Shown here: positions 4,962 to 60,762 of the stretch, piece by piece | Position numbering within the stretch: position 1 is the stretch's first letter | How the letters are laid out: each line of letters opens with the position of its first letter | NCBI GenBank assembly: GCA_020434345.1 | Contig: JAGRAZ010000001.1 | Location: 3,763 to 67,762, forward strand | Length of the DNA: 64,000 bases | From: Bdellovibrionales bacterium | GTDB lineage: Bacteria; Bdellovibrionota_G; JALEGL01; JAGRMV01 | Direction of reading: 5' to 3' | Made by a program: the position numbers and the translations under genes | Notes under the pieces: model-generated | Told to the model about the DNA's origin: nothing | Databases searched by the model: none | What the model saw: only the letters and a program-made list of their open reading frames with translations

Positions 4962-5990
4962 GTGAAAGCGATTATCTACGACAAACTTGGTGGACCAGAA
5001 GTTCTTCAATACAAAGAAGTTGAAGCTCCTACAAAAAATGACGTCACCATCAAACTAGCCTTTGCAAGCATCAACCATACTGACATTCATTTTCGAAGAG
5101 GCTTGCCTGGGATGAAATCCCCTCTTCCACATATTCCCGGATGTGACGGTGCAGGTATTGTAGAAGAAGTTTCTTCTACAAGTACAGAGTTGCAAGTAGG
5201 AGACCGCGTTGCAATCAACCCCACCATCTACTGTTACAATTGTGAATTTTGCAAGCGTGGTGATTTGTACTTATGCAAAAATGAAAAGCTTGTAGGACGC
5301 GAAATTAGTGGAACCTATGCAGAATATATTTCTGTGCCCAAAGACAATGTCATTAAACTTCCCAAAAATTTCGATTTGCAAATTGCAGCCGCAAGCCCAC
5401 TTGTTTATCAAACCGCGTACGCGATGGTCGTAACCAAAGGCAAGCTTGAACAAAACCAAACCGTTTTAGTGATGGGTGCCGGAAGTGGTGTCGGCATGGC
5501 CGCCATTCAAATTGCAAAACATATAGGTGCTACTGTTATTACAACAGCGAGCACAGAAGATAAATGTGCCAAAGCGTTAGATGCTTTACATGCCGATCAT
5601 GTCATCCAGTACACAAAAGAAAATCTTAAAGAGCATGTTAAAGCGTTGACTGAAAAACAAGGTGTTGATGTAATCATTGACCATGTGGGTGGCAGCCAGT
5701 GGACTGATCTGCTCACGCTTCTTAAAAATGGTGGAAAACTTGTAACCTGTGGTGCTACCGCTGGATACAACCCCACAATTGATCTTCGCCATGTGTTTTT
5801 TCGGCAGTTACAAATTTTGGGTTCTACCATGGCCAGCCCCGAGGATATGCAAAAGGTCATGAATCTCATTTTTGAAAACAAAATTACACCTCATATCGAT
5901 CAAGTGTTTCCACTTGCGCAAGTCTACCAAGCCCATCAGCATATCGAAGACAGGCGAGTGTTTGGCAAAGTGCTCCTTGCGATTTCATAG
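4962..5990 (+). CDS. Zinc-binding dehydrogenase of the MDR superfamily (NADPH:quinone reductase / alcohol dehydrogenase-like).
   Basis: MKAIIYDKLGGPEVLQYKEVEAPTKNDVTIKLAFASINHTDIHFRRG...GAGSGVGMAAIQIAK is the Rossmann nucleotide-binding GxGxxG motif. Length 342 aa. Confidence 0.8.
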   Translation: MKAIIYDKLGGPEVLQYKEVEAPTKNDVTIKLAFASINHTDIHFRRGLPGMKSPLPHIPGCDGAGIVEEVSSTSTELQVGDRVAINPTIYCYNCEFCKRGDLYLCKNEKLVGREISGTYAEYISVPKDNVIKLPKNFDLQIAAASPLVYQTAYAMVVTKGKLEQNQTVLVMGAGSGVGMAAIQIAKHIGATVITTASTEDKCAKALDALHADHVIQYTKENLKEHVKALTEKQGVDVIIDHVGGSQWTDLLTLLKNGGKLVTCGATAGYNPTIDLRHVFFRQLQILGSTMASPEDMQKVMNLIFENKITPHIDQVFPLAQVYQAHQHIEDRRVFGKVLLAIS

Positions 5991-12711: not shown

Positions 12712-13344
12712 TTACACTTCAGAACTTGGGCAAAGTGTGTGCAGTTCACATGCTCCGCAAAGTGGCTTTCGTGCTTTGCACGTAGCCCTTCCATGCATGA
12801 TCATACGATGAGAAATGACCGTCCAATCTTTTTGAGACACAAGCTTCATCAAATCTTTTTCTACTTTTACCGGATCTTTTTCTTTGGTGAAACCAAACCT
12901 TCGAGACAATCGCCCCACATGGGTATCCACAACCACACCAACATTTTTTCCAAACGCATTGCCCAGTACCACATTGGCAGTTTTCCTACCTACGCCTCGA
13001 AGTTTAATCAATTCATCCATCGATGCTGGTACCTTGCCACCATGTTTGGTGACAATATCTTCAGATGAACTTTTAAGTGATTTGGCTTTGGATCGAAAAA
13101 AACCTGTAGACTGAATAAGCTTTTCAATGGAAGACAAAGGGGCTTTGCTCATACTTGCTGCATCGGGATATTTTTGAAAAAGTGATGGCGTTACCTTATT
13201 GACACGTTCATCTGTACACTGGGCAGATAAAATGGTTGCTACCAAAAGCTGAAATGGATCATCATGGACAAGCGCGCAATTTGGATCTGGAAAAAGTTTC
13301 GCAAGTTTTTGCAAAATCTTCTTACTTCTTTCATCTTTTTTCAA
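12712..13344 (-). CDS. nth: Endonuclease III.
   Basis: LVATILSAQCTDERVNKVTPSLF is the HhH-GPD region. The C-terminal CKARKPLCGACELHTLC is the 4Fe-4S cluster loop. Confidence 0.9.
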   Translation of the reverse strand: MKKDERSKKILQKLAKLFPDPNCALVHDDPFQLLVATILSAQCTDERVNKVTPSLFQKYPDAASMSKAPLSSIEKLIQSTGFFRSKAKSLKSSSEDIVTKHGGKVPASMDELIKLRGVGRKTANVVLGNAFGKNVGVVVDTHVGRLSRRFGFTKEKDPVKVEKDLMKLVSQKDWTVISHRMIMHGRATCKARKPLCGACELHTLCPSSEV

Positions 13345-15055
13345 AAAACGCCTCTATTTCCTTGGCTGTTCTTGTATTAAGTACGTTTTGTTTTTCAAGC
13401 CCACCCTTTCGTGCCATGTTCACACCAAAGATTACATCTTCCAACCCCTCAATACTATGCGCATCTGGATTGATGGAAACGAGGCCTTTTTTCCGTTTAA
13501 GATACGGCAAAAGTCGCCAGTCTACATCCAGACGATATGGACTTGCATTAAGCTCAACAACCTTTCCAAGTTTTGCTGCATGTTCAATGATCTCATTCAT
13601 ATCAATCTCAAACGCATCCCTTCCTAGCAAAATTCGTCCCGTTGGGTGACCCAACATGGTCGTTGCGGGGTTCGAAAGTGCCTTTTTACAGCGCGTTGTC
13701 ATTTGCTGTTTACTCATACGAAAAGAAGAATGCACAGAAGCAATCACAAAATCAAAGTCCTTTAAAACTTTTTTGGGATAGTCCAACTCACCATCTTTTA
13801 AAATATCAGACTCGATGCCTTTAAAAATACGAATTGTAGGAAACTTTTTCTGAAGCTGATCGATCTCTTTATGTTGCTTGATAATATCTTTGGCGTTTAA
13901 GCCATGTGCATAAAACGCACTCTGACTATGGTCAGTAATACCAATATAATCATAACCCTTATCCACACAAGCCTGAACCATCTCAATCAAAGAATTTTTC
14001 CCATCGCTGTAGGTCGTATGCATATGAAAAATACCTTTGATATCTTTTTCTGAAATGAGATTGGGTAATTTTCCTTTTTCAGCAAGCTCTATTTCTTGCG
14101 TTCCTTCACGCATTTCCGGCTCAACGAATGCAAGATCAAGCGTTTGAAACAAATCTTTTTCTGATTGGATTTTTAATTTTCTTTCTCCCTTAAAAACACC
14201 CCACTCACTCACCTTTAAGCCCATTTTCTTGGCCCGAGAACGAATCAACGTATTATGCTCTTTGCTTCCAGTAAAATGATGAAGTGCGCTTGCAAACTCG
14301 TCGGGCTTTACAATTCGCAAATCGATCTGCAAACCTGTGTCCAAACGAACACTGATCTTAGTATCTCCTGCTGCAATGACTTCCTCTACATTTTTCATTG
14401 TTGAAAACTTTTTTCCAACACTTTCTGGAAGGATAGTAGAACACAAAATATCCGCATCTTTCACAATTTCTTTTTTTCGCCGAAGACTTCCTGCGATCGA
14501 GATTTCACTGACTTCCTTCATTGCAGACAAAATTTTTATAACACCTTCTACTTGTGCAAGTACATCCACATAACGAAAACGCCCTACATTCTTTTTGAGA
14601 TACTCGATGCCTTGAAGGATTTTGTCTTGTGTCTTCTCTCCAAAACCCTTGAGCTTTAAAAGACGATTTTCCTGACAAGCGTATTCAAGCGAAGTCAAAG
14701 AATCAATTCCCAATTCATTGTAAAGAACTTTAATTTTCTTAGGCCCCAATTGTGGAACCTTAAAAAGGTCAAACAATGTTTCTGGAAATTTCTTTTTCAG
14801 TGCATCAAAAACATCTAACTTTCCAGATTCACAATATGTCGTGATATCACTCGCAATCCCCTTACCTATGCCTTGAAGTTCTGTTAAACGATTTTCCCTT
14901 AAAAGTGTTTCAAAATCGTCGGACATTGTTTCTAGTGTTCGTGCAGCGTTTGAAAATGCACGAATCTTAAAAACATTTTCATCATTTAGTTCTAGCAATA
15001 TGGCCATCTCATGAAGAAGATCAATGACATCTTCTTTAGATTTTTTATTTTTCAT
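13331..15055 (-). CDS. polX: DNA polymerase/3'-5' exonuclease PolX (Pol beta-like N-terminus plus PHP domain).
   Basis: The N-terminal region (MKNKKSKEDVIDLLHEMAILLELNDENVFKIRAF...) resembles the PolX N-terminus. The C-terminal half has a histidine/aspartate-rich segment (GIFHMHTTYSDGK...GYDYIGITDHS) consistent with a PHP domain. Length 574 aa. Confidence 0.85.
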   Translation of the reverse strand: MKNKKSKEDVIDLLHEMAILLELNDENVFKIRAFSNAARTLETMSDDFETLLRENRLTELQGIGKGIASDITTYCESGKLDVFDALKKKFPETLFDLFKVPQLGPKKIKVLYNELGIDSLTSLEYACQENRLLKLKGFGEKTQDKILQGIEYLKKNVGRFRYVDVLAQVEGVIKILSAMKEVSEISIAGSLRRKKEIVKDADILCSTILPESVGKKFSTMKNVEEVIAAGDTKISVRLDTGLQIDLRIVKPDEFASALHHFTGSKEHNTLIRSRAKKMGLKVSEWGVFKGERKLKIQSEKDLFQTLDLAFVEPEMREGTQEIELAEKGKLPNLISEKDIKGIFHMHTTYSDGKNSLIEMVQACVDKGYDYIGITDHSQSAFYAHGLNAKDIIKQHKEIDQLQKKFPTIRIFKGIESDILKDGELDYPKKVLKDFDFVIASVHSSFRMSKQQMTTRCKKALSNPATTMLGHPTGRILLGRDAFEIDMNEIIEHAAKLGKVVELNASPYRLDVDWRLLPYLKRKKGLVSINPDAHSIEGLEDVIFGVNMARKGGLEKQNVLNTRTAKEIEAFFEKR

Positions 15056-22956: not shown

Positions 22957-23790
22957 TCAGGTAATTTTTTTGCAAGCCTTAACCGTGTTTTGAAGCAACA
23001 CTGCAATGGTTAGGGGGCCAACTCCACCGGGGACAGGCGTAAGATACCCTGCTTTTGTTTTACAGTCCTCAAAATCAACATCCCCTACAAGTTTGCCGTC
23101 GTTTAGACGATTGATGCCCACATCCACAATACAGGCGCCCGGCTTGATCCAGCTAGCTTTTACCAATTGGGCAATGCCCACTGCGGCCACTACAATATCG
23201 GCTTTTTGGCAAAATTTTTCAATGTCCTTGGTTTTTGAATGACAAATCGTAACCGTTGCATTTTGCCCTAACAATAGATGCGCCATAGGCTTACCCACAA
23301 TATTGCTTCGACCGATCACAACTGCGTTGGCACCTTGCATGTTGATGTCATATTCCTTGAGCAGTCGAATCACACCGGTGGGCGTACACGGTGTTAGCGC
23401 GTCTTGACCTCGAAAAAGCTTTCCCGTATTGATCAAGTGAAATCCATCTACGTCTTTATTTTCATCAACGGCACGCAAAATTACTTCTTCATCAAGGTGT
23501 TTAGGAAGTGGCAATTGAACCAGTATGCCGTGAATATCTTTTCGTTGATTGAGGTCCTCAATCAACACCAACACTTCTTCTTGCGTGACGTTAGCATTTT
23601 TACGAATCACTTCTGAGTACATCCCTACTTTTTGACAGGTTTTATGTTTTCGATTCACATAAACTTGTGAGGCTGGGTCATCACCAATCAGAATGACAGC
23701 CAATCCCGGTTTTACTTCCATGGTAGCAATATCGTTCTGGACTTCTTGCAGAATTTTCTCTGCGACCTTTTTCCCGTCAAGTAGTTGCAT
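22957..23790 (-). CDS. folD: Bifunctional methylenetetrahydrofolate dehydrogenase/cyclohydrolase.
   Basis: MQLLDGKKVAEKILQEVQND...AVILIGDDPASQVYV...VIGRSNIVGKPMAHLL are FolD signatures. Length 277 aa. Confidence 0.9.
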   Translation of the reverse strand: MQLLDGKKVAEKILQEVQNDIATMEVKPGLAVILIGDDPASQVYVNRKHKTCQKVGMYSEVIRKNANVTQEEVLVLIEDLNQRKDIHGILVQLPLPKHLDEEVILRAVDENKDVDGFHLINTGKLFRGQDALTPCTPTGVIRLLKEYDINMQGANAVVIGRSNIVGKPMAHLLLGQNATVTICHSKTKDIEKFCQKADIVVAAVGIAQLVKASWIKPGACIVDVGINRLNDGKLVGDVDFEDCKTKAGYLTPVPGGVGPLTIAVLLQNTVKACKKIT

Positions 23791-23851
23791 GAGCTATGTC
23801 ATACCTGAAGATACAAATTGTGTATAGCTTGCTTTTGCGCTGTTTGTATCA

Positions 23852-23900
23852 ATCTTAAGATACTTTGGGAAGAATGCCGATGTTCTCAATCTGCACAAGC
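23852..23900. repeat. Direct repeat, copy A: a remnant copy of the last ~14 codons plus stop of divIVA, lying after the stop of the cargo gene and upstream of folD.
   Basis: By hand count, 43/49 nt are identical to 24948..24996. On the minus strand it encodes LVQIENIGILPKVS*, against LVQIENVGILPKVS* at the real divIVA end. Most of the differences are synonymous. Confidence 0.8.
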
Positions 23901-23911
23901 ACATGATTTGT

Positions 23912-24790
23912 TTAGTCAATTGTTTTTGGATCGTGAGGATTCACTGCAGGTAAAATATCTGCAATTTCTAAAAGTGTTGCTAGCGCATAAACTCTTTTAG
24001 CATTTTTGAATGCATTTCGACTCGAAGTATTTTTTGTATCAACATCAAAAATATTTTTTCCATCGCCCTTGAGGACATTGATACCATTGTTTTGCAATAG
24101 TCTTTTTCCCCCGCCACTTCCAGCGTTATAAAATATATAAGACCATGCAGCAATCAGTGGATTATCATTGGGCAATTGAATATGTAATGCTTTGGCTGCT
24201 TCAACAAACTTGTCATGCGAGTATTGATAACGAGCGGCAAAAAACTCTGTATAAGCATCAAGACTTTCAAATGCACCAAGTACATATTCATCATTTGCTT
24301 CGTTTCTAACCTTGATGGGAGAACCATCTTGCGTAAGCTCTGGTTGTAAACCAGTATAATCTTGTCGCAAATACCCTTCTCTTTTTAATTTATCTTGAAT
24401 GAAAATTCCATCATCCATACCGTCGCTGGAAGTAGAAAGATCATCAAATAGAGGATCATATCCATACTCACAAATAGCATCAGCACAAAGTAATATATTG
24501 ATCATTGACTCTTGCATGATTGAAGCAACAAAACCTGAAGGAGAAAGACCTGCTGTAACATCATTTGCATGATCAAGTGAGTCCAAAATATCAAAAGAGT
24601 TTTTTGACAGCCACCCCATGATTCCAGGCACCCTCATACCAGCAACCAACCCAGCTTTTCTTTTTAGTTGGTCGTATAGCTCAGTATCATCAACAAGTTT
24701 CTGCGCTTGCGACTCTGCTTTTTTTACGTCAAAAGCATGCGTTGAAAATGGAAGTAAAAAAAATAAAAAGGCATATAGATAGATTTTCAT
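23912..24790 (-). CDS. Secreted hypothetical protein (292 aa). It is the cargo gene of a small islet inserted between divIVA and folD.
   Basis: Signal peptide MKIYLYAFLFFLLPFSTHA. No family recognised. A strong AAGGAG SD lies close to the ATG. The gene is bracketed by the 49-bp direct repeat. Confidence 0.5.
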   Translation of the reverse strand: MKIYLYAFLFFLLPFSTHAFDVKKAESQAQKLVDDTELYDQLKRKAGLVAGMRVPGIMGWLSKNSFDILDSLDHANDVTAGLSPSGFVASIMQESMINILLCADAICEYGYDPLFDDLSTSSDGMDDGIFIQDKLKREGYLRQDYTGLQPELTQDGSPIKVRNEANDEYVLGAFESLDAYTEFFAARYQYSHDKFVEAAKALHIQLPNDNPLIAAWSYIFYNAGSGGGKRLLQNNGINVLKGDGKNIFDVDTKNTSSRNAFKNAKRVYALATLLEIADILPAVNPHDPKTID

Positions 24791-24947
24791 ACTCCTTACT
24801 TAGCAACGAACATGCCAAAGTATTTTCACATTTTTACTTTCATATCAATAACTTAAATACACCTATTACTTCTTGTATAGGGACAAGGGACACTTATAAC
24901 CAAGCAAAGTTGACCAGAAATATAAGTGTTTGGTGACTGTGTAGACT

Positions 24948-24996
24948 TCTTACGAAACCTTAGGAAGGATGCCGACGTTCTCAATCTGCACAAGCA
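24948..24996. repeat. Direct repeat, copy B: the functional 3' end of divIVA.
   Basis: Partner of 23852..23900. It contains the divIVA stop (TAA, minus strand, 24950-24952). Confidence 0.8.
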
Positions 24997-25450
24997 TCTC
25001 TTTGTCTGAATCCTGATCTAACAATTTAAGATGTGTTTCGATGATACCTTTGACCTGCCCATAAAACTCAGCTTTTTGCTTTTTCATACCATTGATCTGA
25101 CCAATGATTTCCGTCAATCGATCATGGGCTTGCTTAAGCACTTTTTCAGCCTGCATCTCCGCTTGCTGAATAATGAGTTGAGATTCTTTTTGCGCATTGG
25201 CATTCATTTGCTCTGTCATTTTTTGCGCGGTTTTCATGGTTTCTTTGATTTCACGTTCGTTACGCTCAAGCTCTTCAATACGTTGGGTCTGATTTTCTGT
25301 AAGCATGGTTAATTCAACCAACTTTTTGTTTAACTCTTCAGTATACTCAACCACATCCCGCAAAAAGGATCGAACCTGTTCCACATCAAATCCACGGAAT
25401 TTTTTATCAAAATCTTTGTGCTGAATATCTAACGGTGTCATCTTCTTCAT
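24950..25450 (-). CDS. divIVA: DivIVA-domain cell-division protein.
   Basis: MKKMTPLDIQHKDFDKKFRGFDVEQVRSFLRDVVEYTEELNKK is the DivIVA N-terminal signature. The remainder is coiled-coil. Confidence 0.75.
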   Translation of the reverse strand: MKKMTPLDIQHKDFDKKFRGFDVEQVRSFLRDVVEYTEELNKKLVELTMLTENQTQRIEELERNEREIKETMKTAQKMTEQMNANAQKESQLIIQQAEMQAEKVLKQAHDRLTEIIGQINGMKKQKAEFYGQVKGIIETHLKLLDQDSDKEMLVQIENVGILPKVS

Positions 25451-25520: not shown

Positions 25521-26189
25521 CTACCGTTCGCCAAACAGAATGGTTCCCAAACGCACGTGGGTGGCCCCCTCCTCGATGGCGACCTCAAAATCATTGGATA
25601 CCCCTTGAGACAACGCGACGCATGGTAGTCGCGGATGCTGCAACATCTGAATTCTTGTTTGAAGCGCTTTGGCTTGAGAAAAAAAAGCGCGATTTTCTTG
25701 TGCGTCTTTTGCGTTTGGTGGAAATACCATAAGGCCATTTAGTACAAGATCCGTCTGAAGTATTTTTTGTAAAAATGCTTCCACCTCATCTGGCATAACA
25801 CCTGATTTTGTTTCTTCTTTGGACAAATTCACTTGTAATAACAACAAGGGTCTCTTTTCTTTCTCGATCGATACCCACTTTTCAAGCTGACTTTCCCTAT
25901 CTAATGAATGGACCATGTAAACTGTTCCTGCAATCTTGGGGATTTTTCTCGATTGCGTATCACCAATAAAATGCCACCTAATATCTTTTGGCAGTTGCTC
26001 TTTTTTTACCAACAGCTCTTGCACATAATTTTCGCCAAAATTCCGAATACCAAGATCATAGGCTTTTTTTATTCTTTCTACGCTTTGCTTTTTGCTCACA
26101 GCAACAAGCGTTACATCCTGAAAAGCACGGTCAGCACTTACACAAGCTTGATCAATCCGCTTACAAATCTCTTCATATTGTTTTTTCAT
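25521..26189 (-). CDS. yggS: YggS-family pyridoxal-phosphate homeostasis protein.
   Basis: GENYVQELLVKKEQLPKDIRWHFIGDTQSRKIPKIAG...MVHSLDRESQ matches the UPF0001/YggS family. Confidence 0.8.
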   Translation of the reverse strand: MKKQYEEICKRIDQACVSADRAFQDVTLVAVSKKQSVERIKKAYDLGIRNFGENYVQELLVKKEQLPKDIRWHFIGDTQSRKIPKIAGTVYMVHSLDRESQLEKWVSIEKEKRPLLLLQVNLSKEETKSGVMPDEVEAFLQKILQTDLVLNGLMVFPPNAKDAQENRAFFSQAKALQTRIQMLQHPRLPCVALSQGVSNDFEVAIEEGATHVRLGTILFGER

Positions 26190-26764
26190 TTTGAAATGAT
26201 CGCAAGTGATTCTAAATCCTGAAAAATCTCATACAGCGGTAGACCGATTACGTTGGTGAGCGAGCCTTCAATGGACTCAACAAAAAACCCTGCATGTTCT
26301 TGAATACCGTATGCACCAGCTTTATCTAAAACTTGAGCTTGTTGAAGATAGAGCTCCAATAAACTTGCATCAATCGTTTTCATATGAACTTTGGTTTGAA
26401 CCACACGACTGATTTGTTTTTTGTACTGAATGACATACGCTGTAGAAACATAGTGCGACGTGCCTGATAACATTTGCATCATCTTTTTTGCATCTTGTAC
26501 GTCTTTAGGTTTTCCCAGAATGTTTTGATCAAGATGAACAATGGTATCTGCTGTAACGCATGCCGCATCTTGTGGAATTTTCTCTTGCAATGAATCCATC
26601 TTGGCTTGTGCAATTTCAAGTACAAACTTTGAAGGATCATTTGTACTTGCAGTTTCGGGTTCAACAGGTTCCATGGTTTTAACCAAAAGTCCCCAAGACA
26701 TCAAAAGCTCTTTCCTACGCGGCGACTTTGATCCCAAAATCACTGTACAATGCTGTTTCATCAA
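26186..26764 (-). CDS. maf: Maf-like nucleoside-triphosphate pyrophosphatase (septum formation protein Maf).
   Basis: TVILGSKSPRRKELL... is the Maf N-terminal motif. Length 192 aa. Its start overlaps the yggS stop. Confidence 0.8.
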   Translation of the reverse strand: MMKQHCTVILGSKSPRRKELLMSWGLLVKTMEPVEPETASTNDPSKFVLEIAQAKMDSLQEKIPQDAACVTADTIVHLDQNILGKPKDVQDAKKMMQMLSGTSHYVSTAYVIQYKKQISRVVQTKVHMKTIDASLLELYLQQAQVLDKAGAYGIQEHAGFFVESIEGSLTNVIGLPLYEIFQDLESLAIISK

Positions 26765-28695: not shown

Positions 28696-28722
28696 TCTAG
28701 AAAAAAGAACTCACTTCTAAAA

Positions 28723-29691
28723 TCACATTTTTTTACATTTTATAGATGATGGAATCCATGGATTGATTAATTCAGAAGACTGTTGATATCTACAAATACC
28801 TTTTGAAAAAAGAGAATCATAATGTCGAGAAAAGCTAAGTTGAGAAACTGTACAACCTCTTTCGCCCATCTCGCAAAGCTCTAATAAACCGCTATCTAGC
28901 GTAAAGTCTTCTCCATATTTTTTGATAAATTTTTTATCAATTTCCTCAAGGTTTATTTTCTCAGGCGCACCAAAAACTCTTGCTATGAAAGGGGCCCCTG
29001 TTCTGATTTCATGGTACTCATCATCGTATTTACCGTTAAAATACTGAATAGGCTGCATTAATTCTTCAAAACTCAAAACTGTTTTTGCAGTATCAGGATT
29101 AGTTACCAAGAAGGAAGTTGTATGATTATCACGAATTAACGTTATCGTACCAGGTAGAATATCATGCAAGACTCTCAATGCAGCTTGCTCTTGATTTGTT
29201 ACAGCGCCATAAGAACCATTTATGGGAAACGTCATTCCTAGCATTCTTTCATAAGAATCTTTTACCAACTTATGAAAGTCTATCACCGTTTTCTTTCTTG
29301 CTTCAGCTGGATTGAGTTTATCTTTTTCAATGTAGTTGCGAAATGTTTGTACCAGCGCCTGTGTAATCGTATAAACAGGTGCATTCTCAGAGTTCTTTTT
29401 GTTTCCACCCAGTTCCCATTGTTTTATGGCATACCACTGATCACCGTTTGTTAAATACCCATTTTCATCAGCATCAAAAATTGTACTTAAATCAAGTCGT
29501 CCATTTTCTTTGCTCATTTCATTTTCGTGATCCCATGCAAACAAATCATGCGATGCCAAACCCAACACACCTATGTCTTTCACTAGAATATTTTGCGTCT
29601 TATCTGCATGATCATATGCAGAAACAAATGAAGTAGAAAAAACAGAACAAATTATAAAAACAGCCACATGTATACAACCTCTATACGTCAT
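28723..29691 (-). CDS. Secreted hypothetical protein (322 aa).
   Basis: Signal peptide ...IHVAVFIICSVFSTSFVSA. No family recognised. Confidence 0.45.
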   Translation of the reverse strand: MTYRGCIHVAVFIICSVFSTSFVSAYDHADKTQNILVKDIGVLGLASHDLFAWDHENEMSKENGRLDLSTIFDADENGYLTNGDQWYAIKQWELGGNKKNSENAPVYTITQALVQTFRNYIEKDKLNPAEARKKTVIDFHKLVKDSYERMLGMTFPINGSYGAVTNQEQAALRVLHDILPGTITLIRDNHTTSFLVTNPDTAKTVLSFEELMQPIQYFNGKYDDEYHEIRTGAPFIARVFGAPEKINLEEIDKKFIKKYGEDFTLDSGLLELCEMGERGCTVSQLSFSRHYDSLFSKGICRYQQSSELINPWIPSSIKCKKM

Positions 29692-30013
29692 ACGAACCTC
29701 TTTTATCTATCAAACTAGATGTACTATTTTGGACCCCCCAAAATGAGCTGTATTTGAATTAACCAATCGCATCAATCTTGTCAATATCAAAAATGATAAT
29801 AATTCTCATTTTCATAAAAAGTGTGTATCATGGACTGTATGAGCACATCTGAAAAAGAGGTTATGGTTCAAAAAGGCCCCTGTGGCTACATTGCTGTGAA
29901 TTTTGGGTTGGGCACCTTCTACATCCCTAGAAAGCTTGCAGAAAGCCTTTGTAAGCACCTGCAAATCTGTCTAGAGGAAAAGGCAACCAGACCGTCAAAA
30001 GTCGCGTAATGCT

Positions 30014-30523
30014 TTAGGGCCGCATTGTCATGCGCTCAAACAGAACATCAAGAAGCGCATCCTTTTGACCATCCGTTAATAGATCCAATCTTGGGTCACC
30101 CATGCGAACTTTTGTAAGCACGACATCTTTTTTCATAGGCGCACTTAATCGACCCAAAGGTACAGCATCTACAAGTCCAAAATCTTTCAATCGAAACTGT
30201 TGGTGGTGCCCCTCTTCTTTCATTTGAGAAGTATAGGTTTTAGACATTAACAAAAAATGTGCATGCAAATCACTTGTAGGAAGCCCCAGATAGGATTGAA
30301 AATTTTCACAGTCCTGACAAACTTCTTTGTAGTGTTGATAAGCAAAAACAAATTTGACGGGTTCATTTCTGACATTGTGTTCTTGGTTTGTTCTAACCCA
30401 AATTTGTACCGGGCCTTGGTTTTCAAACTCGCCAACAATTTGTAACACAACTGAAACACGATCTTCTGCAACAGCACATGCAAAAACAATACAACCTAAT
30501 AAAAAAATAGAAATGAATTTCAT
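30014..30523 (-). CDS. Small secreted hypothetical protein.
   Basis: MKFISIFLLGCIVFACAVAEDR is a signal peptide. First of three tandem small secreted genes. Confidence 0.4.
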   Translation of the reverse strand: MKFISIFLLGCIVFACAVAEDRVSVVLQIVGEFENQGPVQIWVRTNQEHNVRNEPVKFVFAYQHYKEVCQDCENFQSYLGLPTSDLHAHFLLMSKTYTSQMKEEGHHQQFRLKDFGLVDAVPLGRLSAPMKKDVVLTKVRMGDPRLDLLTDGQKDALLDVLFERMTMRP

Positions 30524-30543
30524 ATACAACCTTTTTTACACTT

Positions 30544-31017
30544 TTATTTTACTTCATCTACGGCAATGAATGCTTCAATTGATTCTTCTAAAAATTCCAT
30601 TTTCATACTCAACTCATCAACATCAACTTTGCGAACTTTACCGTTCCATGATCGTGTAAAGCCTTTGGTTGAATATCGATAGGCTTTTTGTATACACGCA
30701 TCCGCTGTCATATTGGTAACTGTGTAAGTATATCGCGCATTTGATTCTGTATCCTCATACACACCGTCTGCCGACAAAGTACATTTTACGCTTTGGCCTT
30801 TGTAGCTTAAATCAAATCTTAGCAGTGAATCAAGATACATCGCGGTAAGACATGCATTGTATGCCTCATGTGTATTTGAAAAAAGTCTTCTGTCATGAAG
30901 AAATTCTAACTTTGTTTCTCCATCAATTTTCACAAAACCTTTACATTGCCAAAGTCGATTTTCCGCAAATACATTTGAAGATACAACCAACACCAATCCA
31001 ACAATCCATAATTTCAT
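30544..31017 (-). CDS. Small secreted hypothetical protein.
   Basis: MKLWIVGLVLVVSSNVFAEN is a signal peptide. Confidence 0.4.
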   Translation of the reverse strand: MKLWIVGLVLVVSSNVFAENRLWQCKGFVKIDGETKLEFLHDRRLFSNTHEAYNACLTAMYLDSLLRFDLSYKGQSVKCTLSADGVYEDTESNARYTYTVTNMTADACIQKAYRYSTKGFTRSWNGKVRKVDVDELSMKMEFLEESIEAFIAVDEVK

Positions 31018-31041
31018 ATACAACTCCTGCCTTAATACATT

Positions 31042-31383
31042 TTAAAAATGTGCAAAAAAGCCCCAATCACAAGACTCTACATACTCAATGAAAAAACGTT
31101 TGGTAACCGTGTGTACAACACCAAGTCTTCCCATTTTTTCTTTGATATCCACATACTCTTTGTTTTCGTAAGAGTCACAAAATGCATTGCACTGTGCTTC
31201 CGTAAGACCATTTTTACTAAAATTACGCTCATTATGATCATCATGTCGATCTACAATGGTGAGCCCGTTGGCATTGGGACCATAATGACCGACAAGTTCA
31301 ACCTGACACAATCCTGTCTCTTCCGCAAAACCGAGATTCACAAAACACAGTATTGTTACAACAATCCACCCTAATCTTTTCAT
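31042..31383 (-). CDS. Small secreted Cys-containing hypothetical protein.
   Basis: MKRLGWIVVTILCFVNLGFAEE is a signal peptide. Six Cys. Confidence 0.4.
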   Translation of the reverse strand: MKRLGWIVVTILCFVNLGFAEETGLCQVELVGHYGPNANGLTIVDRHDDHNERNFSKNGLTEAQCNAFCDSYENKEYVDIKEKMGRLGVVHTVTKRFFIEYVESCDWGFFAHF

Positions 31384-31427
31384 AGTGACGCTTGATATCA
31401 GTATTGATAATGAAAATCAATAGCGAA

Positions 31428-36903: not shown

Positions 36904-38355
36904 TTATTTTGGAATTTTTATTTTTTTACTTTGATTTTCGAGAAACAAATACGTTATAATAATGCTTCCTAAAACAAGCCATATCACTTCATTCGGCACC
37001 CAACCCATTTCAATTGGCTTATACCCCTCTCTTAAAAACGTATCGGAAAAATCAATAAAAACAGAGGTAACTTCGGTTTGCACCCTTGCTGCCACAGTTA
37101 TAACCATTGGTATGGAAACACATAAGGCTAAAAGCAAAATAAAAGAAGTCATAATCATCACCATGCCAAAGGTAGGAACAATAAATATATTGTACACAAA
37201 TGATAGTGGATTCCATTGATCAAAAAATAAAATTAAAAAAGGCGAAGTCCATAGATATGCCGCCATGCAAACAAGAAAATGTATCCACACTTTCTGTTTC
37301 CATAAATGTGTTTTTATATTTTCTCTTTGATACAAAAGTAGCGTCCATATTATGCCTACAACAGCTGAAAAGCTCAGAACAGACGATATAGACAAAATCT
37401 CAAATGGAAACAGAATCATTGTTGCCCACAATGTTACAATAAGAACAAAAAGAAAACTTCTTCGAAAGCCGATAGATGTTTGAAAAAGATAGATTGTAAT
37501 AAATGCCCACGCACGAAATGTTGGAACCGTAACTTCAAGCCATTTCCATAGAAATAGCGTTACAAAAAGCCAAGAACAAAAAGAGACAAGTATCTGAAAA
37601 TTTCGTTGATGATGTATCCAACAACAAAAGGCAAAAGAAAAAATAAACATCGCAAATCCATAAAGAAGCGCCACATGAAAACCAGAAAAAACAAACAAAT
37701 GAATGATCCCAACATCTCTCCATATATTCTTGATCGAAGAATCAACAAACCTTGATTTACCCTCTACAAGCGCTTGGAATATTTGATAGGACGGTACGGG
37801 TAAAAGTATTTTCGCCCTTTGCATAATTTTTTGTTTGTACGTTGGCGCATGCTTGGAAACATAACTCCACTTTTGATCACTACGAATCACCGTTGTCCAC
37901 GCATTGAGCTTATCATCGAATTTGATTTTGCTTTGAAAGCGAATAATATCGCCCTCTTTTGGATAGACAAACGTATACATTCGGGCCGTGACTCTCTGAG
38001 AGAGACTTTCCCAGAGATTACCATTACGCACGCCTTCAACACACAAATCTAAACTATACATTTGATCTGTTGGAATAACTGCCGAACAAACCCTTGCCTC
38101 ATATAGATTCTGCTTATTTTCAATGGCGATCACGGAAGGATTATAGACAAATCGACTTACCCCATGATGAAACATAAAACTTACGGCCACCACTGCGCCC
38201 ATAAGACCGATCCAACGATTTTTTTCACTCGTGCTCAAAAGCAAACAGACAAGACAACTTACAAAAAGGATTCCCCCGATCCACCACGCAATATGCGCGT
38301 AAGAAAATGCAATTCTACCTAGAGCGAATGCCAGAAAAAGATGAAGAAGTCGCAC
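36904..38355 (-). CDS. comEC: ComEC/Rec2-family competence membrane protein (DUF4131 plus competence domain; no beta-lactamase domain).
   Basis: Polytopic membrane protein. GDIIRFQSKIKFDD is the OB-like N-terminal part. IGIIHLFVFSGFHVALLYGF resembles the competence-domain LLAISGLHV motif. Confidence 0.55.
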   Translation of the reverse strand: MRLLHLFLAFALGRIAFSYAHIAWWIGGILFVSCLVCLLLSTSEKNRWIGLMGAVVAVSFMFHHGVSRFVYNPSVIAIENKQNLYEARVCSAVIPTDQMYSLDLCVEGVRNGNLWESLSQRVTARMYTFVYPKEGDIIRFQSKIKFDDKLNAWTTVIRSDQKWSYVSKHAPTYKQKIMQRAKILLPVPSYQIFQALVEGKSRFVDSSIKNIWRDVGIIHLFVFSGFHVALLYGFAMFIFSFAFCCWIHHQRNFQILVSFCSWLFVTLFLWKWLEVTVPTFRAWAFITIYLFQTSIGFRRSFLFVLIVTLWATMILFPFEILSISSVLSFSAVVGIIWTLLLYQRENIKTHLWKQKVWIHFLVCMAAYLWTSPFLILFFDQWNPLSFVYNIFIVPTFGMVMIMTSFILLLALCVSIPMVITVAARVQTEVTSVFIDFSDTFLREGYKPIEMGWVPNEVIWLVLGSIIITYLFLENQSKKIKIPK

Positions 38356-55915: not shown

Positions 55916-56110
55916 TTACTTTTTAGAGAGTTCGCAGGTGTTAATGCCCAACAGTTGGTACGGGGGACACCAACCTATAAGACCAGTTGCAAGGGGCACG
56001 ATACCTAATAAAAACCACATGTTTTTAGGACCAACAAAGGCTAGGCTAATCAACACCAAACCAACACCTACACGAACAGCTCTTTCGATTGGATGAATAT
56101 TTTTTTTCCT
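55916..56110 (-). CDS. DUF2892 (YgaP-like) small membrane protein. No in-frame ATG is present, so this is either a rare or alternative start codon or a 5'-disrupted pseudogene.
   Basis: Hand translation gives ...KKNIHPIERAVRVGVGLVLISLAFVGPKNMWFLLGIVPLATGLIGWCPPYQLLGINTCELSKK*, a close match to the DUF2892 consensus (..DR.iR...G......G...W..LiG..Pl.TG..G.CP.Y.llGinTC). Confidence 0.4.
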   Translation of the reverse strand, partial: RKKNIHPIERAVRVGVGLVLISLAFVGPKNMWFLLGIVPLATGLIGWCPPYQLLGINTCELSKK

Positions 56111-56186
56111 AATGCTTCTCCTTCTATATGAAACGTAAGACTTTCAACAAAAAATGTAAACTTTTTACCACGTTCTATGCAGATCA

Positions 56187-56227
56187 CACTATTACATCTT
56201 GATGCAATTGGAGTACAGACCTAGCAG
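56187..56227. repeat. Direct repeat, copy C1: a remnant copy of the marC 3' end, downstream of the multicopper-oxidase gene.
   Basis: By hand count, 32/41 nt are identical to 58531..58571. On the minus strand it encodes LLGLYSNCIKM* followed by TAG, against VLGLYSNYIKI* TAG at the real marC end. Confidence 0.75.
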
Positions 56228-56246: not shown

Positions 56247-58490
56247 CTAATAGGTTAATGTCATACCTAACCCCCACCCCATATCGCTATCATAATGCGT
56301 TGAAGCAGAAATATATTTGGAAAGAATGTAACGAAACCCAGCCATATATTCCTTGTCAGTATTAAGCATTAGATTCATACGAAGTCTTTTTGAGATGGAT
56401 ATATCTTCTCGTCCCAATTGAAATCGAAGTTTCGCATCTGAATCCAAACGTAAATCTGCCACAAACAGCATGGGCAAAATATACTGTAAACCCATTACGG
56501 CTGTTTTTCGATTGTCTTTGTTACTCTTTTGACCAAACCATGTTTGGCTTTCATCTCCAAAAATATTACCCGGCCCTCCAGGCTTCTTATAATGCAAATC
56601 AAAACCAACATACGGATACCACCACTGCATTTTTCCCAAATAACGACCTAATGTCGTTTCACTCTCATAACCATGCATATCGTGAAATCCCAAATGCCAA
56701 AGCGTACCCATCTTCCAACGAGTATTTGCAAGCATCGCTTCCCCATCACTACCGTTGCTTTCAATTCCGATCGTAGCCATAGCATGAAACATTTGATCTT
56801 CTTTATATAGTTTTTTGAGTGCTGATTCAGGGTTGGGTAAATCTGGATTTGGCGGTGAATCTTCATAGTGAAAGATCCGACCCATGCCACTCATCATGTG
56901 ATACAAAATATGACAATGAAAAAACCAATCGCCTTCAGCATTGGCTGCAAACTCAATAACATCTGTCTCCATGGGCATAATATCAATCACGTTTTTCATA
57001 GGAGAAAAATCTCCATGCTTATTGATCAAACGAAAATCATGACCGTGGAGATGCATAGGATGTCGCATCATTGAATTGTTATAAATTGTTATACGGAGGT
57101 TTTCGCCCTTTTTGATCAGAATTTTTTCGCTTTCAGAAATAGTTCGATTGTTCAGTGTCCAAACATACCGGTTCATATTTCCAGTTAGCTCAAAATGTAG
57201 TTCCCTTACCGAACCAGTTGGCAATACCGTGCTCTCAGGTGAACGCAACATGCCATAATTCAATGTAACAATTTTACCTTTCTCAATTTCAGGATACATC
57301 ACACGATTCATATCCATTTGTTGATTTTGCATTTTCATTTCATGCATTGGTTTCATATTGCCTGATACATCCATCATACCGTTCATCATTTTCATGCCTT
57401 CAAAATATTTAAGTCGTGGAAGATTTTGCGCAAAAACCTTTTGTCCAATCCCCAACCAAAGCGAAGCTGACTTGGTTCGATCCTCAGGCGTGATCAAAAA
57501 TTCAAAACTCTTATTCTCAGGAATTTCTACAATGACATCATAAGTTTCTGAAACGGTTATCAGTAATCGATCCACATCAACTGGAACTACATCATTCCCA
57601 TCAGAAGCAACAACAGTGATTTTTCCACCTGCGTATGTGAGCCAAAAGTTATCTGAAGCGCCCGCATTGATTAAGCGTAGTCTGACGCGATCCCCTGATT
57701 TGAAATCATGATATTGAACTTGATTTTTTCCATTGATGAGAAACGTGTCGTAATACACGTCACTAACATCCATGGCGGACATACGCTTCCATTCATTGAT
57801 TATTTTGGTCCAAAAATGACCATGTCGAATCGCTTCCCAATAACTTTGAGTACTACCTTTCTGAATACCAAACCAATCTGAAGCACTATGCAATCTCCGA
57901 TCAACCTCCTGTGGCTTAACATCCGTCCACTCACTTATTACAACTGGAATAGTAGGGATTGCAGGCTCATCACGCTTAAGTAAAACCATTGCTCCATACA
58001 TACCAATCTGTTCCTGAAGCCTAGAATGACTGTGATACCAATGCGTTCCATGTTGAACGATTGGGAAACGATAGACATGCTCAGAATGTGGAGGAATTGG
58101 TAATTGAGTTAAATTTGGTACGCCATCATAGCGATTTGGTAAAAACAAACCATGCCAATGCAAAGAAGTGTCTTCATCCAAATCATTAAAAACATGGATC
58201 TCAGCCATGTCTCCTTCTGTAAAAGTCAGTGTCGGCATAGGCAATTGGCCATTGACGCCAATAGCTTTTTTCGTTTTGCCAGAAAAGTTCACATTCATTG
58301 GATGAATATGTAAATCGTATCGTACTGTCTTGGGAGAGTTTATATTTGCAACTGTCTTTTGGTCCTCTTGAACTTCTTTGCCAGATTGATTTTGGTGGAT
58401 TGACTGCTGATAATCCAAATACTCTTGGGCACTTATGTTTTGGAAAACAAAGAAAATAATCAAAAAGAATATTCTTATAGCCAACACCAT
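56247..58490 (-). CDS. copA: Multicopper oxidase (CopA/CueO-like) fused to a C-terminal CopB-like outer-membrane domain (the last ~205 aa, encoded at 56247..56865).
   Basis: Signal peptide. Copper-ligand motifs HWHGLFLP, HWYHSH, HPMHLHGH and HCHILYHMMSGMG. A Met-rich segment MKMMNGMMDVSGNMKPMHEMKM. The C-terminal ...LQYILPMLFVADLRLDSDAKLRFQLGREDISISKRLRMNLMLNT...YDSDMGWGLGMTLTY resembles CopB/PcoB. Confidence 0.8.
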   Translation of the reverse strand: MVLAIRIFFLIIFFVFQNISAQEYLDYQQSIHQNQSGKEVQEDQKTVANINSPKTVRYDLHIHPMNVNFSGKTKKAIGVNGQLPMPTLTFTEGDMAEIHVFNDLDEDTSLHWHGLFLPNRYDGVPNLTQLPIPPHSEHVYRFPIVQHGTHWYHSHSRLQEQIGMYGAMVLLKRDEPAIPTIPVVISEWTDVKPQEVDRRLHSASDWFGIQKGSTQSYWEAIRHGHFWTKIINEWKRMSAMDVSDVYYDTFLINGKNQVQYHDFKSGDRVRLRLINAGASDNFWLTYAGGKITVVASDGNDVVPVDVDRLLITVSETYDVIVEIPENKSFEFLITPEDRTKSASLWLGIGQKVFAQNLPRLKYFEGMKMMNGMMDVSGNMKPMHEMKMQNQQMDMNRVMYPEIEKGKIVTLNYGMLRSPESTVLPTGSVRELHFELTGNMNRYVWTLNNRTISESEKILIKKGENLRITIYNNSMMRHPMHLHGHDFRLINKHGDFSPMKNVIDIMPMETDVIEFAANAEGDWFFHCHILYHMMSGMGRIFHYEDSPPNPDLPNPESALKKLYKEDQMFHAMATIGIESNGSDGEAMLANTRWKMGTLWHLGFHDMHGYESETTLGRYLGKMQWWYPYVGFDLHYKKPGGPGNIFGDESQTWFGQKSNKDNRKTAVMGLQYILPMLFVADLRLDSDAKLRFQLGREDISISKRLRMNLMLNTDKEYMAGFRYILSKYISASTHYDSDMGWGLGMTLTY

Positions 58491-58530
58491 CTCTTACCTA
58501 TAAGCAATTTTATGGTTTGTAAAAATTAAA

Positions 58531-58571
58531 CTCTATTATATCTTTATATAGTTGGAATACAGACCTAGTAC
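58531..58571. repeat. Direct repeat, copy C2: the functional 3' end of marC.
   Basis: Partner of 56187..56227. It contains the marC stop (TAA, minus strand, 58536-58538) followed by TAG. Confidence 0.75.
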
Positions 58572-59180
58572 ACCAGTAATAAACATTTGTGCTGCTAAGG
58601 AACCTACAACCAGCCCCATCAAACGACTAAACACACGTATACCATTTTCGCCAAGTCTCTCTTTGATGCGTGGCATGTTACGTAGAATCAAATAATTGCT
58701 CACCGAGCATAAAATAATAGCGACAGTTACAGACAAATACGATTGCCAGCTCTTATGAACAAGACTAAGGTTAATAAGCGTGGTTGTAAGCCCCGGGCCA
58801 GCGATAATGGGAATAGAAAGCGGCACGATACTGATATCACTTTGCTGCCTTGCAGCCTCGTGCTCCGTAGATTGGTGGTTTGTTTTTTTGCCTTTACCTT
58901 GAACCATATCAAAGCCCATGATCAAAAGAATAATTCCACCAAAAATTCGCAGCCCATCTGGCTTGATTCCAAAAAAATTAAAAATATATGTACCACTTAA
59001 AAACAATATCAACATCGTAATGAATACTGTTTTCGTACATCTTCTTGCGATGGTTTCAATTTCTTGCTTTGTGACAGATTCGCTGACAAGCGAAAGCATA
59101 ATGACCCCTGCAGACAAGGTATTCATGATGGTAAAAATCGAAATGGTGTTACCAAGGATGCTTTTAAGTAGTTCAATCAT
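58536..59180 (-). CDS. marC: MarC-family (UPF0056) integral membrane protein.
   Basis: Six predicted TM segments. The N-terminal region resembles the MarC family. Confidence 0.7.
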   Translation of the reverse strand: MIELLKSILGNTISIFTIMNTLSAGVIMLSLVSESVTKQEIETIARRCTKTVFITMLILFLSGTYIFNFFGIKPDGLRIFGGIILLIMGFDMVQGKGKKTNHQSTEHEAARQQSDISIVPLSIPIIAGPGLTTTLINLSLVHKSWQSYLSVTVAIILCSVSNYLILRNMPRIKERLGENGIRVFSRLMGLVVGSLAAQMFITGVLGLYSNYIKI

Positions 59181-60296: not shown

Positions 60297-60762
60297 TGGG
60301 GTTCCTTACTACTACAAAAGGCTGCAACTGATCAAGTAGGCGTTGTGAGATGCCTCGAATTTCTGCAAGTTGGGCAAGATTTTCAAATCCACCCGTCCTT
60401 TTCCTCATTTCTAGGATCTTTTTTGCCCTAGATGGCCCAATGCCGGGTAGAGCCATAAGCGCATGACGACTTGCCGTATTTAGGTCGATTCTGCCTCCTT
60501 GCAACAAGTATCTAGAGGTCAGAATTTCTTGATATTCAGGCAGGTTACCCACACGTCTTTGGCCATGCATCATGGAACATAGGGTTTTTACGCTCAAAAT
60601 AATGCATAGCATTGCAATAAAACCAACTTCCCACTTTTTTTGATTATCTAATGATTTTAACAAGTTATTAACCTTCGATGTGCTTGACAGCCCCTCTTTT
60701 TCGATGGTAGCTGTAAAAGAAAAGTGGCTTTGCCATTTTTTCTCCTGTGTGCCAGTGACCAT
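60280..60762 (-). CDS. comEA: ComEA-family helix-hairpin-helix DNA-binding protein.
   Basis: IDLNTASRHALMALPGIGPSRAKKILEMRKRTGGFENLAQLAEIRGIS is the HhH motif. N-terminal TM segment. The exact start is uncertain. Confidence 0.6.
   Translation of the reverse strand: MVTGTQEKKWQSHFSFTATIEKEGLSSTSKVNNLLKSLDNQKKWEVGFIAMLCIILSVKTLCSMMHGQRRVGNLPEYQEILTSRYLLQGGRIDLNTASRHALMALPGIGPSRAKKILEMRKRTGGFENLAQLAEIRGISQRLLDQLQPFVVVRNPNGDKK

Follow-up and report, generated by a model that had tools for sequence, protein, structure and literature searches.

A single-gene islet behind divIVA in a Bdellovibrionales genome resembles the footprint of integration at a gene 3′ end

In a Bdellovibrionales genome, one gene for a secreted protein lies directly behind divIVA, and the 3′ end of divIVA is found twice, once on either side of it. 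This arrangement raises the question of how the gene arrived there and which of the two divIVA tails is the native one. All coordinates refer to the window, i.e. the whole stretch of 64 kb that was analysed, and the features of both islets and their neighbours described below lie on the minus strand. The target gene divIVA (24950..25450; Pfam DivIVA, E = 1.2e-31) is intact and encodes 166 aa, and the orthologues P0003 (75% identity) and P0004 (56%) retain its C-terminal tail. A repeat search recovered an ungapped direct repeat, 23853-23901 and 24948-24996, with an identity of 43/49, which spans the last 14 codons, the stop codon and 2 further nt of divIVA. A preliminary description of this DNA had given the same identity, which was confirmed, but had set the distal copy one base too low (23852..23900).

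This pair is the top-scoring direct repeat of the entire window. In 10 shuffled windows, the best match between 49-mers within 5 kb reached 31-33 positions, and a scan for at least 29/36 matches within 8 kb returned exactly two pairs in 64 kb, one at divIVA and one at marC, while the same scan on 5 shuffles returned no pair. These controls rule out a chance origin of the repeat, in line with the preliminary description. A longer repeat was also rejected, as gapped local alignment ends at 49 nt; the flanks past the two stops, compared with each other, show no significant similarity (p = 0.68 and 0.95). When the four tail-plus-flank regions were folded, z ranged from -1.6 to +0.7 with none outstanding, and a role of the repeats in RNA structure was dismissed. 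An assembly artefact is unlikely, because both proximal junctions recur in the independent assemblies L017 and L014; the distal junctions are present in this assembly only.

The proximal, attL-like copy (24948..24996) ends divIVA and encodes LVQIENVGILPKVS followed by the stop, and the distal, attR-like copy (23853..23901) is an orphan tail that encodes LVQIENIGILPKVS, likewise followed by a stop. Both translate as LVQIEN(V/I)GILPKVS, and their six differences comprise five synonymous changes at third codon positions and a single first-position change (V/I), which bears out the earlier statement that the copies differ mostly synonymously. At the gene-internal end, a block of 20 nt (24977..24996, partner 23882-23901) is identical in both copies, and the six differences are confined to the sequence 3′ of it. 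Within the block 0/6 third positions differ, compared with 5/8 outside (p = 0.028), and the block is a candidate crossover core. The distal copy begins 10 nt past the stop codon of the 292-aa open reading frame, and its stop triplet is situated 64 nt upstream of the folD start codon (ATG at 23790). A folD promoter within the orphan tail was considered as well, and a consensus scan reported none.

In relatives, divIVA is followed directly by folD after a gap of 37 nt (L002) or 58 nt (L003-L006), with a single copy of the tail. Since such unoccupied sites were found in two relative lineages, the 1.1-kb segment is an insertion. It interrupts the conserved block maf-yggS-divIVA-folD-gcvTHP, in which folD (22957..23790; Pfam THF_DHG_CYH domains) is the next gene after divIVA in relatives; the relatives with one tail copy thus support the insertion into this block that had been proposed beforehand. 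As DivIVA of the available relatives is only 56-75% identical, this comparison is a distant one for the origin of both copies from one target. No similar tail-duplication islet was present on the contigs of the relatives L002, L003 and L007. A search of metagenome contigs with a DivIVA alignment re-found the contig of L003 and nothing else, and a search of genome contigs with MnmA gave one match, which was irrelevant. A third lineage-specific insertion in the window, at truA|Tam41, has no tail repeat.

The sequences that flank the two tails were compared with the native divIVA-folD intergenic region of the relatives. The spacer right after the divIVA stop (24919..24947) resembles this region, with local alignments to the intergenic sequences of L003 (p = 0.02) and L002 (p = 0.04) scored against shuffles. 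Judged from the alignments, this resemblance fits an element whose tail copy may once have been captured from a related chromosome. On the other side, the native-type intergenic region from the orphan tail to the folD start codon (23791..23852) aligns loosely with the L003 intergenic sequence near the folD start (p = 0.11 against shuffles).

The gene carried by the islet (23912..24790) encodes a secreted protein of 292 aa and is preceded by an AAGGAG Shine-Dalgarno sequence read from the sequence (~24796-24801) and a promoter-like site, TTGATA-18 nt-AATACT (24819..24848), which a consensus scan alone picked out with 9/12 matches. A first structure model, built from 2 sequences, had a pLDDT of 41.6 and was unusable. 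The predicted structure shows a lysozyme-like fold with a catalytic glutamate, and the protein is therefore predicted to be a secreted cell-wall-cutting enzyme of lytic-transglycosylase fold. The closest known systems for the protein are the family 1 lytic transglycosylases and the goose-type lysozyme fold (Slt70, MltC, MltE), but at the sequence level no curated SLT/GH23 model matched, and Pfam SLT, NCBIfam and PDB sequences gave nothing. Only 13 relatives were detected among 1.84 billion representatives; in one of these, a protein of 2624 aa, the cargo-type domain is C-terminal and follows a pretoxin-HINT domain. The gene is a near-orphan with a GC3 of 0.24. In L001, the one place besides the window where the cargo family occurs, DNA similarity to the islet is restricted to the coding sequence, so conserved element ends were rejected; the 40 nt that remain past the stop of the homologue contain no divIVA tail, and no flanking DNA is common to L001 and the window. 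Read-through from the cargo into the orphan tail was rejected: the divIVA orphan is in frame with the cargo gene, which we regard as a coincidence, and the marC orphan is out of frame with the multicopper oxidase gene.

The second pair of repeats flanks an islet of the same layout and polarity at marC (58536..59180; Pfam MarC, E = 8.6e-46), as the preliminary description had noticed. Here the proximal repeat (58530..58568) comprises the last 10 codons, the stop codon and 6 nt of marC, and matches the distal repeat (56186..56224) at 32/39 positions. The distal copy is an orphan tail, LGLYSNCIKM with two stop triplets, and lies 22 nt past the stop of a multicopper oxidase gene. On the gene-internal side, the two copies agree over a block of 11 nt (58558-58568), and both MarC tails are far closer to each other than to any other MarC tail. 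The oxidase (56247..58490; Pfam Cu-oxidase, Cu-oxidase_2 and Cu-oxidase_3) consists of 747 aa, including a signal peptide and an extension at the C terminus. Along its entire length it shares ~57% identity with multicopper oxidases encoded by Bacteroidota plasmids, which belong to copper/heavy-metal clusters in the two contexts inspected. From GC3 and near-orphan status in the first case and the kinship with Bacteroidota plasmid genes in the second, both cargo genes look foreign. No empty marC site was seen among four MarC homologue contexts, all of which are non-syntenic and three of Bacteroidota type. By eye rather than by formal alignment, the repeat pairs at divIVA and marC (tails TGCTTGTGCAGATTGAGAAC... 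and CTAGGTCTGTA...) have no evident sequence similarity. The recurrence of the architecture that had been taken to indicate a recurring mechanism is real, but given these dissimilar repeats a single shared site-specific mechanism looks unlikely.

Both orphan tails retain the reading frame and the stop codon. When the two pairs are pooled, 10/12 coding differences fall at third codon positions, and for these 12 differences, the whole basis of the statistics, a binomial test gives p = 5e-4 for an expected share of 1/3 and p = 0.019 for 1/2, the value for free drift of an orphan. In both pairs, every difference is located 3′ of the identical block on the gene-internal side (combined p = 0.016). 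With so many third-position differences, the tails resemble a pair of alleles that were both shaped by evolution as coding sequence, one of them native and displaced and the other brought in. The distal copy is consequently allele-like in both pairs, and the earlier view of it as a decayed duplicate was abandoned.

A known insertion at a gene 3′ end was then taken as the positive control. In E. coli K-12, icd extends into e14, and icdC is the orphan C-terminal fragment (PMC13626634). The signature of this e14/icd-icdC junction matches that of the divIVA islet. Its repeat of 165 nt has a sharp inner edge, where the copies agree over a block of 11 nt. Of the 12 differences, 11 affect third positions, and a weak resemblance continues slightly beyond the stop. 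The same edge, identical block and third-position differences speak for the footprint of 3′-end integration that the preliminary description had seen in the divIVA locus.

Genes for mobility were sought throughout the window. A six-frame motif screen of the 64 kb gave no credible integrase, transposase or excisionase, and Pfam scans of 20 further large open reading frames gave no recombinase. Each islet has room for a single gene and holds one open reading frame, which does not encode a recombinase, just as first described for the divIVA islet. The ends of the islets showed no terminal inverted repeats in a repeat search. A transposon or insertion sequence was rejected on these grounds (no terminal inverted repeats, no transposase) and because the duplication is 39-49 nt instead of a few bp. 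An integron cassette was rejected because each repeat consists of the tail of the adjacent gene, no shared site is evident by eye, and no integrase was found in the window. Among viral contigs, exact searches with the two inner blocks gave 0 hits, and the cargo genes had no match either.

Because a displaced tail is what integrase-type elements at gene 3′ ends leave behind, the islet may be the relic of such an element or a non-autonomous derivative with att flanks, which brought its own replacement tail, and we regard the chances of this reading as about even. The 1.1-kb segment would have been acquired horizontally through Campbell-type recombination of a circle into the chromosome, with the exchange point within the coding part of divIVA, in the 20-bp block whose start lies 49 nt short of the repeat end. 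The incoming DNA would have brought its own last 14 codons and stop of divIVA, which would now complete the gene (24948-24996), and the original tail would have been displaced downstream of the cargo, where it would persist as the orphan upstream of folD (23853-23901). We thus infer that the distal copy is the displaced native 3′ end. Later, the recombinase module would have been lost and one selected cargo gene left. The marC/multicopper-oxidase islet would have arisen independently, by the same type of event at another site. As no recombinase was found in the window, the integrative element, together with a site-specific recombinase as the agent, is what we infer from this footprint. Given the dissimilar repeats at divIVA and marC, two recombinase specificities would probably have been needed, both since lost.

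Several observations count against this reading. No recombinase was found in the window and no attP-bearing element in the viral contigs, L001 has no divIVA tail in the 40 nt past the stop, no empty site was seen for marC, and the statistics draw on 12 differences. Furthermore, the cargo genes stop 10 nt (divIVA) and 22 nt (marC) short of the orphan tail, which is remarkably tidy for a larger element that decayed at random.

The lack of a recombinase in the window and the dissimilarity of the repeat pairs leave room for routes that need no integrase. Recombination with DNA of a related strain, taken up by natural transformation, is a rather unlikely candidate, though the likeliest of the alternatives. 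It could have proceeded through a circularised fragment of tail and cargo that entered by one RecA-dependent crossover within the short stretch of identity, or through homology-facilitated illegitimate recombination, in which a donor divIVA allele plus cargo would replace the native sequence up to 49 nt before the stop and leave the native tail behind. Such an exchange would agree with tails that look like alleles of close relatives, with coding-type differences and MarC tails that are mutually closest, and with the proximal flank that resembles the intergenic region of a relative. It would also explain the unrelated site sequences by general recombination without two integrases, and the window encodes ComEC and a ComEA-like protein (ORF 60280-60762). 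However, perfect identity extends over only 20 nt at divIVA and 11 nt at marC, which is less than homologous recombination usually needs to be efficient, and illegitimate joining alone does not explain why both repeats have an identical block on their inner side. Nor would it be expected to produce, twice over, a remnant of less than 50 nt and an end 10-22 nt past the cargo stop.

Insertion with long target duplication, of the type described by Kobayashi and colleagues, would have produced two copies that were identical at first and diverged later. It has been reported for restriction-modification genes, with duplications of 30-500 bp, no mobility gene and an unknown mechanism, mostly in naturally competent species, and in H. 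influenzae with 46-bp repeats that overlap gene 3′ ends (PMC2853133). The repeats of 49 and 39 nt, their overlap with gene 3′ ends and the lack of mobility genes match these published cases, and ComEC in the window is in keeping with competence. Nevertheless, we consider this origin improbable, and less probable than recombination with transformed DNA. Free drift predicts that about half of the differences fall at third positions, against the 10/12 observed (p = 0.019), and the polarity, with all differences 3′ of the identical block in both pairs (p = 0.016), is not expected. In addition, the published repeats are near-identical (44-47 of 46-47), and the islets carry no restriction-modification system. 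Alternatively, divIVA and, in a separate event, marC may have been duplicated in tandem long ago, with the second copy later overwritten by an incoming gene except for its last codons. This would account for the coding-type divergence of the tails and the native-like sequence past both stops. No relative has tandem divIVA copies, though, and two long-lived paralogue pairs would be required, each overwritten to less than 50 nt, with the identical block at the inner edge left unexplained; we hold this to be very improbable indeed.

A more far-reaching thought is that the islets belong to a working single-gene cassette system of this uncultured Bdellovibrionales lineage, either independent of an integrase or mobilised in trans, which appears distinctly improbable, ahead of the tandem duplication only. 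Each cassette may combine a conserved gene's tail with a short spacer and a single open reading frame, and may loop out by recombination between the tails and, after DNA uptake, re-enter a related genome at the same gene end. If this were true, secreted-enzyme genes would spread without damage to the target gene. The divIVA islet is a synteny-dated example of the gain of a single secreted-enzyme gene in a little-known lineage of predatory type. Its predicted wall-cleaving enzyme and the copper oxidase at marC were added with the conserved target genes undamaged by either insertion, and the orphan tails would be small molecular fossils of the alleles before insertion. Two one-gene, recombinase-free footprints within 64 kb raise the question of whether they are debris of larger elements or still mobile. 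The predicted lytic-transglycosylase fold, which also occurs C-terminal to a pretoxin-HINT module, provides a first functional lead for a near-orphan family.

Among known systems, the closest are integrase-type elements that insert at the 3′ ends of protein genes, with e14 or phage 21 at icd as the type case. These share with the islets a repeat of the gene tail through the stop, an intact target and an orphan tail at the far end, and e14 also shares the identical block at the inner edge and differences that are nearly all synonymous. The islets accordingly display the tail repeat, the allele-like copies with a core at the inner edge and, at divIVA only, the empty site, and lack a recombinase gene inside the element. 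In contrast, e14 is 15 kb long with its own integrase and excisionase and a repeat of 165 nt, whereas the islets are about 1.05 and 2.3 kb, carry one gene and no recombinase, and have repeats of 49 and 39 nt. Cis-mobilizable elements (CIMEs), like further att-flanked islands that are decayed or non-autonomous, consist of att-like direct repeats around cargo without recombination or transfer genes; the CIMEs described usually measure several kilobases and adjoin or derive from known ICEs. The likeness to the islets, att-like repeats around cargo without recombination genes, is structural only, and unlike for CIMEs, a search of viral contigs gave the islets no autonomous partner element that uses their site (0 matches). 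Insertion with long target duplication is reportedly also attributed to Nobusato et al. 2000. In the form given by Furuta, Abe and Kobayashi 2010, it has in common with the islets a duplication of more than 30 bp (49 and 39 nt here) at a gene 3′ end, a small insert without mobility genes and recurrence within one genome. Its repeats are nearly identical and enclose restriction-modification genes, whereas the islet copies differ by 12-18%, with coding-type differences and polarity, and enclose genes for secreted enzymes.

On the minus strand of the window, maf (26186-26764), a YggS-type gene (25521-26189), divIVA (24950-25450), the ORF of a 292-aa cargo protein (23912-24790) and folD (22957-23790) follow one another, and gcvT, gcvH and two gcvP genes come after folD on the same strand. 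A repeat search confirmed the direct repeat that the preliminary description had proposed around the cargo: positions 23853-23901 and 24948-24996 are identical at 43 of 49 nt without gaps, and this pair is the strongest direct repeat of the whole 64-kb window. The proximal copy lies where first described, while the distal copy had been placed one base too low. In ten shuffled windows, the best 49-mer match at a distance of at most 5 kb reached 31-33 identities; with at least 29/36 identities required within 8 kb, the window yielded exactly two pairs and five shuffles yielded none. Gapped local alignment did not extend the divIVA repeat past 49 nt. In gene orientation, the proximal copy comprises the final 14 codons of divIVA, the stop codon and 2 nt. 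A gap of 10 nt separates the cargo stop codon from the distal copy, an orphan tail whose own stop triplet precedes the folD ATG by 64 nt. The two copies encode LVQIENVGILPKVS and LVQIENIGILPKVS, each followed by the stop; five of the six differences are synonymous at third positions, and the remaining one is a V/I exchange at a first position.

The closest DivIVA relatives were then followed back to their contigs, which confirmed that the segment between divIVA and folD in the window is an insertion, as had been claimed. The contig of relative L002 (75% identity) carries maf, yggS, divIVA, folD, gcvT, gcvH and gcvP in the same order with only 37 nt between divIVA and folD, and this gap is 58 nt in L003-L006 (56% identity), compared with 1159 nt from the divIVA stop to the folD start in the window. 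Each of these relatives possesses a single tail at the empty site, the peptide of which is kept across the clade, and no comparable tail repeats were found on the contigs L002, L003 and L007. In L017, which was assembled independently from the same strain, the divIVA-to-cargo junction matches base for base; the cargo-to-folD junction is known only from the present assembly. The 29 nt 3' of the proximal divIVA stop resemble the native intergenic sequence of relatives (p = 0.02 versus L003, 0.04 versus L002), as they should if the incoming tail had at some time been acquired from a related chromosome. Separately, L002 has a folD-gcvT gap of 405 nt (5534-5938), compared with 54 nt in the window and 74 nt in L003, and a 168-nt unit is tandemly repeated at one end of L003 (1-500).

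A second islet with the same architecture had been proposed at marC and was likewise found. Here, marC (58536-59180, minus strand) is followed by a multicopper oxidase of 747 aa (56247-58490, minus), beyond which an orphan copy of the last 10 marC codons and stop is situated (56186-56224 versus 58530-58568, 32/39 identical). Six coding differences separate the copies, five of them at third positions and the sixth at a second position. The marC-to-oxidase junction recurs in L014, an assembly from another sample. Among the best MarC homologues (65-71% identity) no empty site was seen, their contexts being unrelated and mostly of Bacteroidota type, and the two MarC tails of the window are far closer to each other than to any other MarC tail. 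Full-length identity between the oxidase and multicopper oxidases of Bacteroidota plasmids is about 57%; in the two plasmid contexts inspected, the gene belongs to a copper/heavy-metal cluster and marC is absent from the surroundings. The best matches of both MarC and the oxidase are from Bacteroidota, where the two genes are not neighbours, although the MAG carries the label Bdellovibrionales; possibly marC was itself acquired at an earlier time. Downstream of the orphan marC tail, at a distance of about 75 nt, lies a small membrane ORF (55916-56112, minus) that by eye resembles a DUF2892/YgaP-type protein. It has no ATG, GTG or TTG before 56059, upstream of which a conserved-looking N-terminus (NIHPIERAVRVG...) is encoded; a GAAGGAG site preceding an ATT, together with a stretch of eight A's, suggests an ATT start, a frameshift or an assembly error.

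When both pairs are taken together, 10 of 12 coding differences fall on third codon positions (binomial p = 5e-4 versus a uniform expectation). The excess persists (p = 0.019) against an expectation of about one-half, which applies when the copies start identical, the orphan drifts freely and the functional copy takes silent changes only. Since the frame and stop are also intact in both orphan tails, simple decay of a duplicate, as the preliminary description had it, does not account for the orphan, and "displaced native tail" is proposed instead. Judged by this codon pattern, the copies resemble a pair of alleles, each shaped within a working gene. In addition, both pairs are polar: all differences lie 3' of an identical block at the gene-internal repeat edge (20 nt in divIVA, 11 nt in marC), upstream of which similarity breaks off abruptly. 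Third-position differences inside versus outside the block number 0/6 versus 5/8 for divIVA and 0/3 versus 5/7 for marC (combined p = 0.016). By eye, the two repeats share no sequence similarity. Other roles for the tails were rejected: folding of the four tail regions was unremarkable, a promoter scan found no site in the orphan tail, and the in-frame position of the divIVA orphan tail, which would allow read-through from the cargo, is not repeated at marC.

Database records list the cargo as a hypothetical protein from a Bdellovibrionales MAG. Its N-terminus is signal-peptide-like, its GC3 is 0.24 (neighbours, 0.30-0.43), and it has no sequence match in Pfam, NCBIfam or PDB. A single close homologue was found among 5.8 billion proteins (contig L001, 66% identity), and when 1.84 billion representatives were searched exhaustively with a profile, 13 proteins matched at E ≤ 0.001, the query's own among them. 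A structure model from two sequences was useless (pLDDT 41.6); the model from a nine-sequence alignment reached a pLDDT of 75.6 and a pTM of 0.77. Across this alignment E94, part of a QES triplet, and the YNAG residues do not vary; they resemble two motifs of family 1 lytic transglycosylases, E-S and AYNAG. From this likeness and the predicted structure, we interpret the cargo as a putative peptidoglycan-cleaving enzyme that is secreted and highly divergent. One of the 13 proteins, the 2624-aa P0143, contains a pretoxin-HINT domain (residues 2186-2318) and then a C-terminal match to the cargo profile (2470-2608, E = 5e-4), so that the family may also serve as a polymorphic-toxin tip. The homologue in L001 has a different context, with DNA similarity to the window confined to the coding sequence and no divIVA tail in the remaining 40 nt after its stop. 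Just upstream of it, a perfect 21-nt inverted repeat (ATGTATCAAATTTGGTACATG; 103-123 and 841-861) brackets a 144-aa gene with a weak, sub-threshold match to the immunity protein Imm40; the segment so bracketed might be invertible or a miniature mobile unit.

How could such islets, each with the capacity for a single gene, arise? A circle carrying a copy of the target's tail would recombine into the chromosome and leave the observed structure, and the identical inner block would be the place of exchange. Three routes fit this geometry. We favour a site-specific recombinase, the gene of which would since have been lost or would act from elsewhere, and rate its chances as about even: no other route explains the identical inner block of both pairs, and this one also accounts for a replacement tail in coding condition and agrees with the e14 control. 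Against it, the cargo ORFs stop 10 and 22 nt short of the orphan tails, and the searches found no recombinase: a six-frame motif screen of the window gave no credible tyrosine or serine recombinase hallmarks, and 20 further large ORFs scanned against Pfam returned housekeeping functions only. Neither inner block had an exact match in viral contigs. The integrative element of the preliminary description is the best available reading and is not proven.

General recombination with DNA of a related strain, by RecA crossover or homology-facilitated illegitimate joining, requires no recombinase and accommodates two unrelated sites, but identities of 20 and 11 nt are very short for RecA, and illegitimate joining does not predict the block and the tidy ends; we consider it rather unlikely. 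DNA uptake is conceivable given ComEC (36904-38355) and a ComEA-like helix-hairpin-helix protein (60280-60762), which, together with a PolX-type polymerase (13331-15055), possibly form an uptake and repair toolkit bearing on foreign-gene entry. A Kobayashi-type event, in which a long stretch of target is simply duplicated, agrees in size, position and absence of mobility genes (PMC2853133), but not with the codon-position bias and polarity, which leaves it unlikely. That cargo later overwrote part of a tandem gene duplication seems very improbable. A third lineage-specific insertion (28696-31427) places three small secreted proteins (322, 171 and 159 aa) between a Tam41-like gene and truA, the stops of which are 7 nt apart in relative L007; this insertion has no flanking tail repeat.

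As a positive control for an integrase-type element in a gene 3' end, the end of icd was compared with the orphan icdC in the e14 region of E. coli K-12, where icd reaches into e14 and its C-terminal fragment icdC lies at the opposite end (PMC13626634). This repeat of 165 nt has a sharp inner edge with an identical 11-nt block, and 11 of its 12 differences are at third positions, with two conservative D/E replacements; weak similarity runs about 20 nt beyond the stop. Apart from scale, the two pairs in the window carry the same signature. The islets at divIVA and marC belong to a known kind of phenomenon, unusual in their minimal size and in the occurrence of two so close together.
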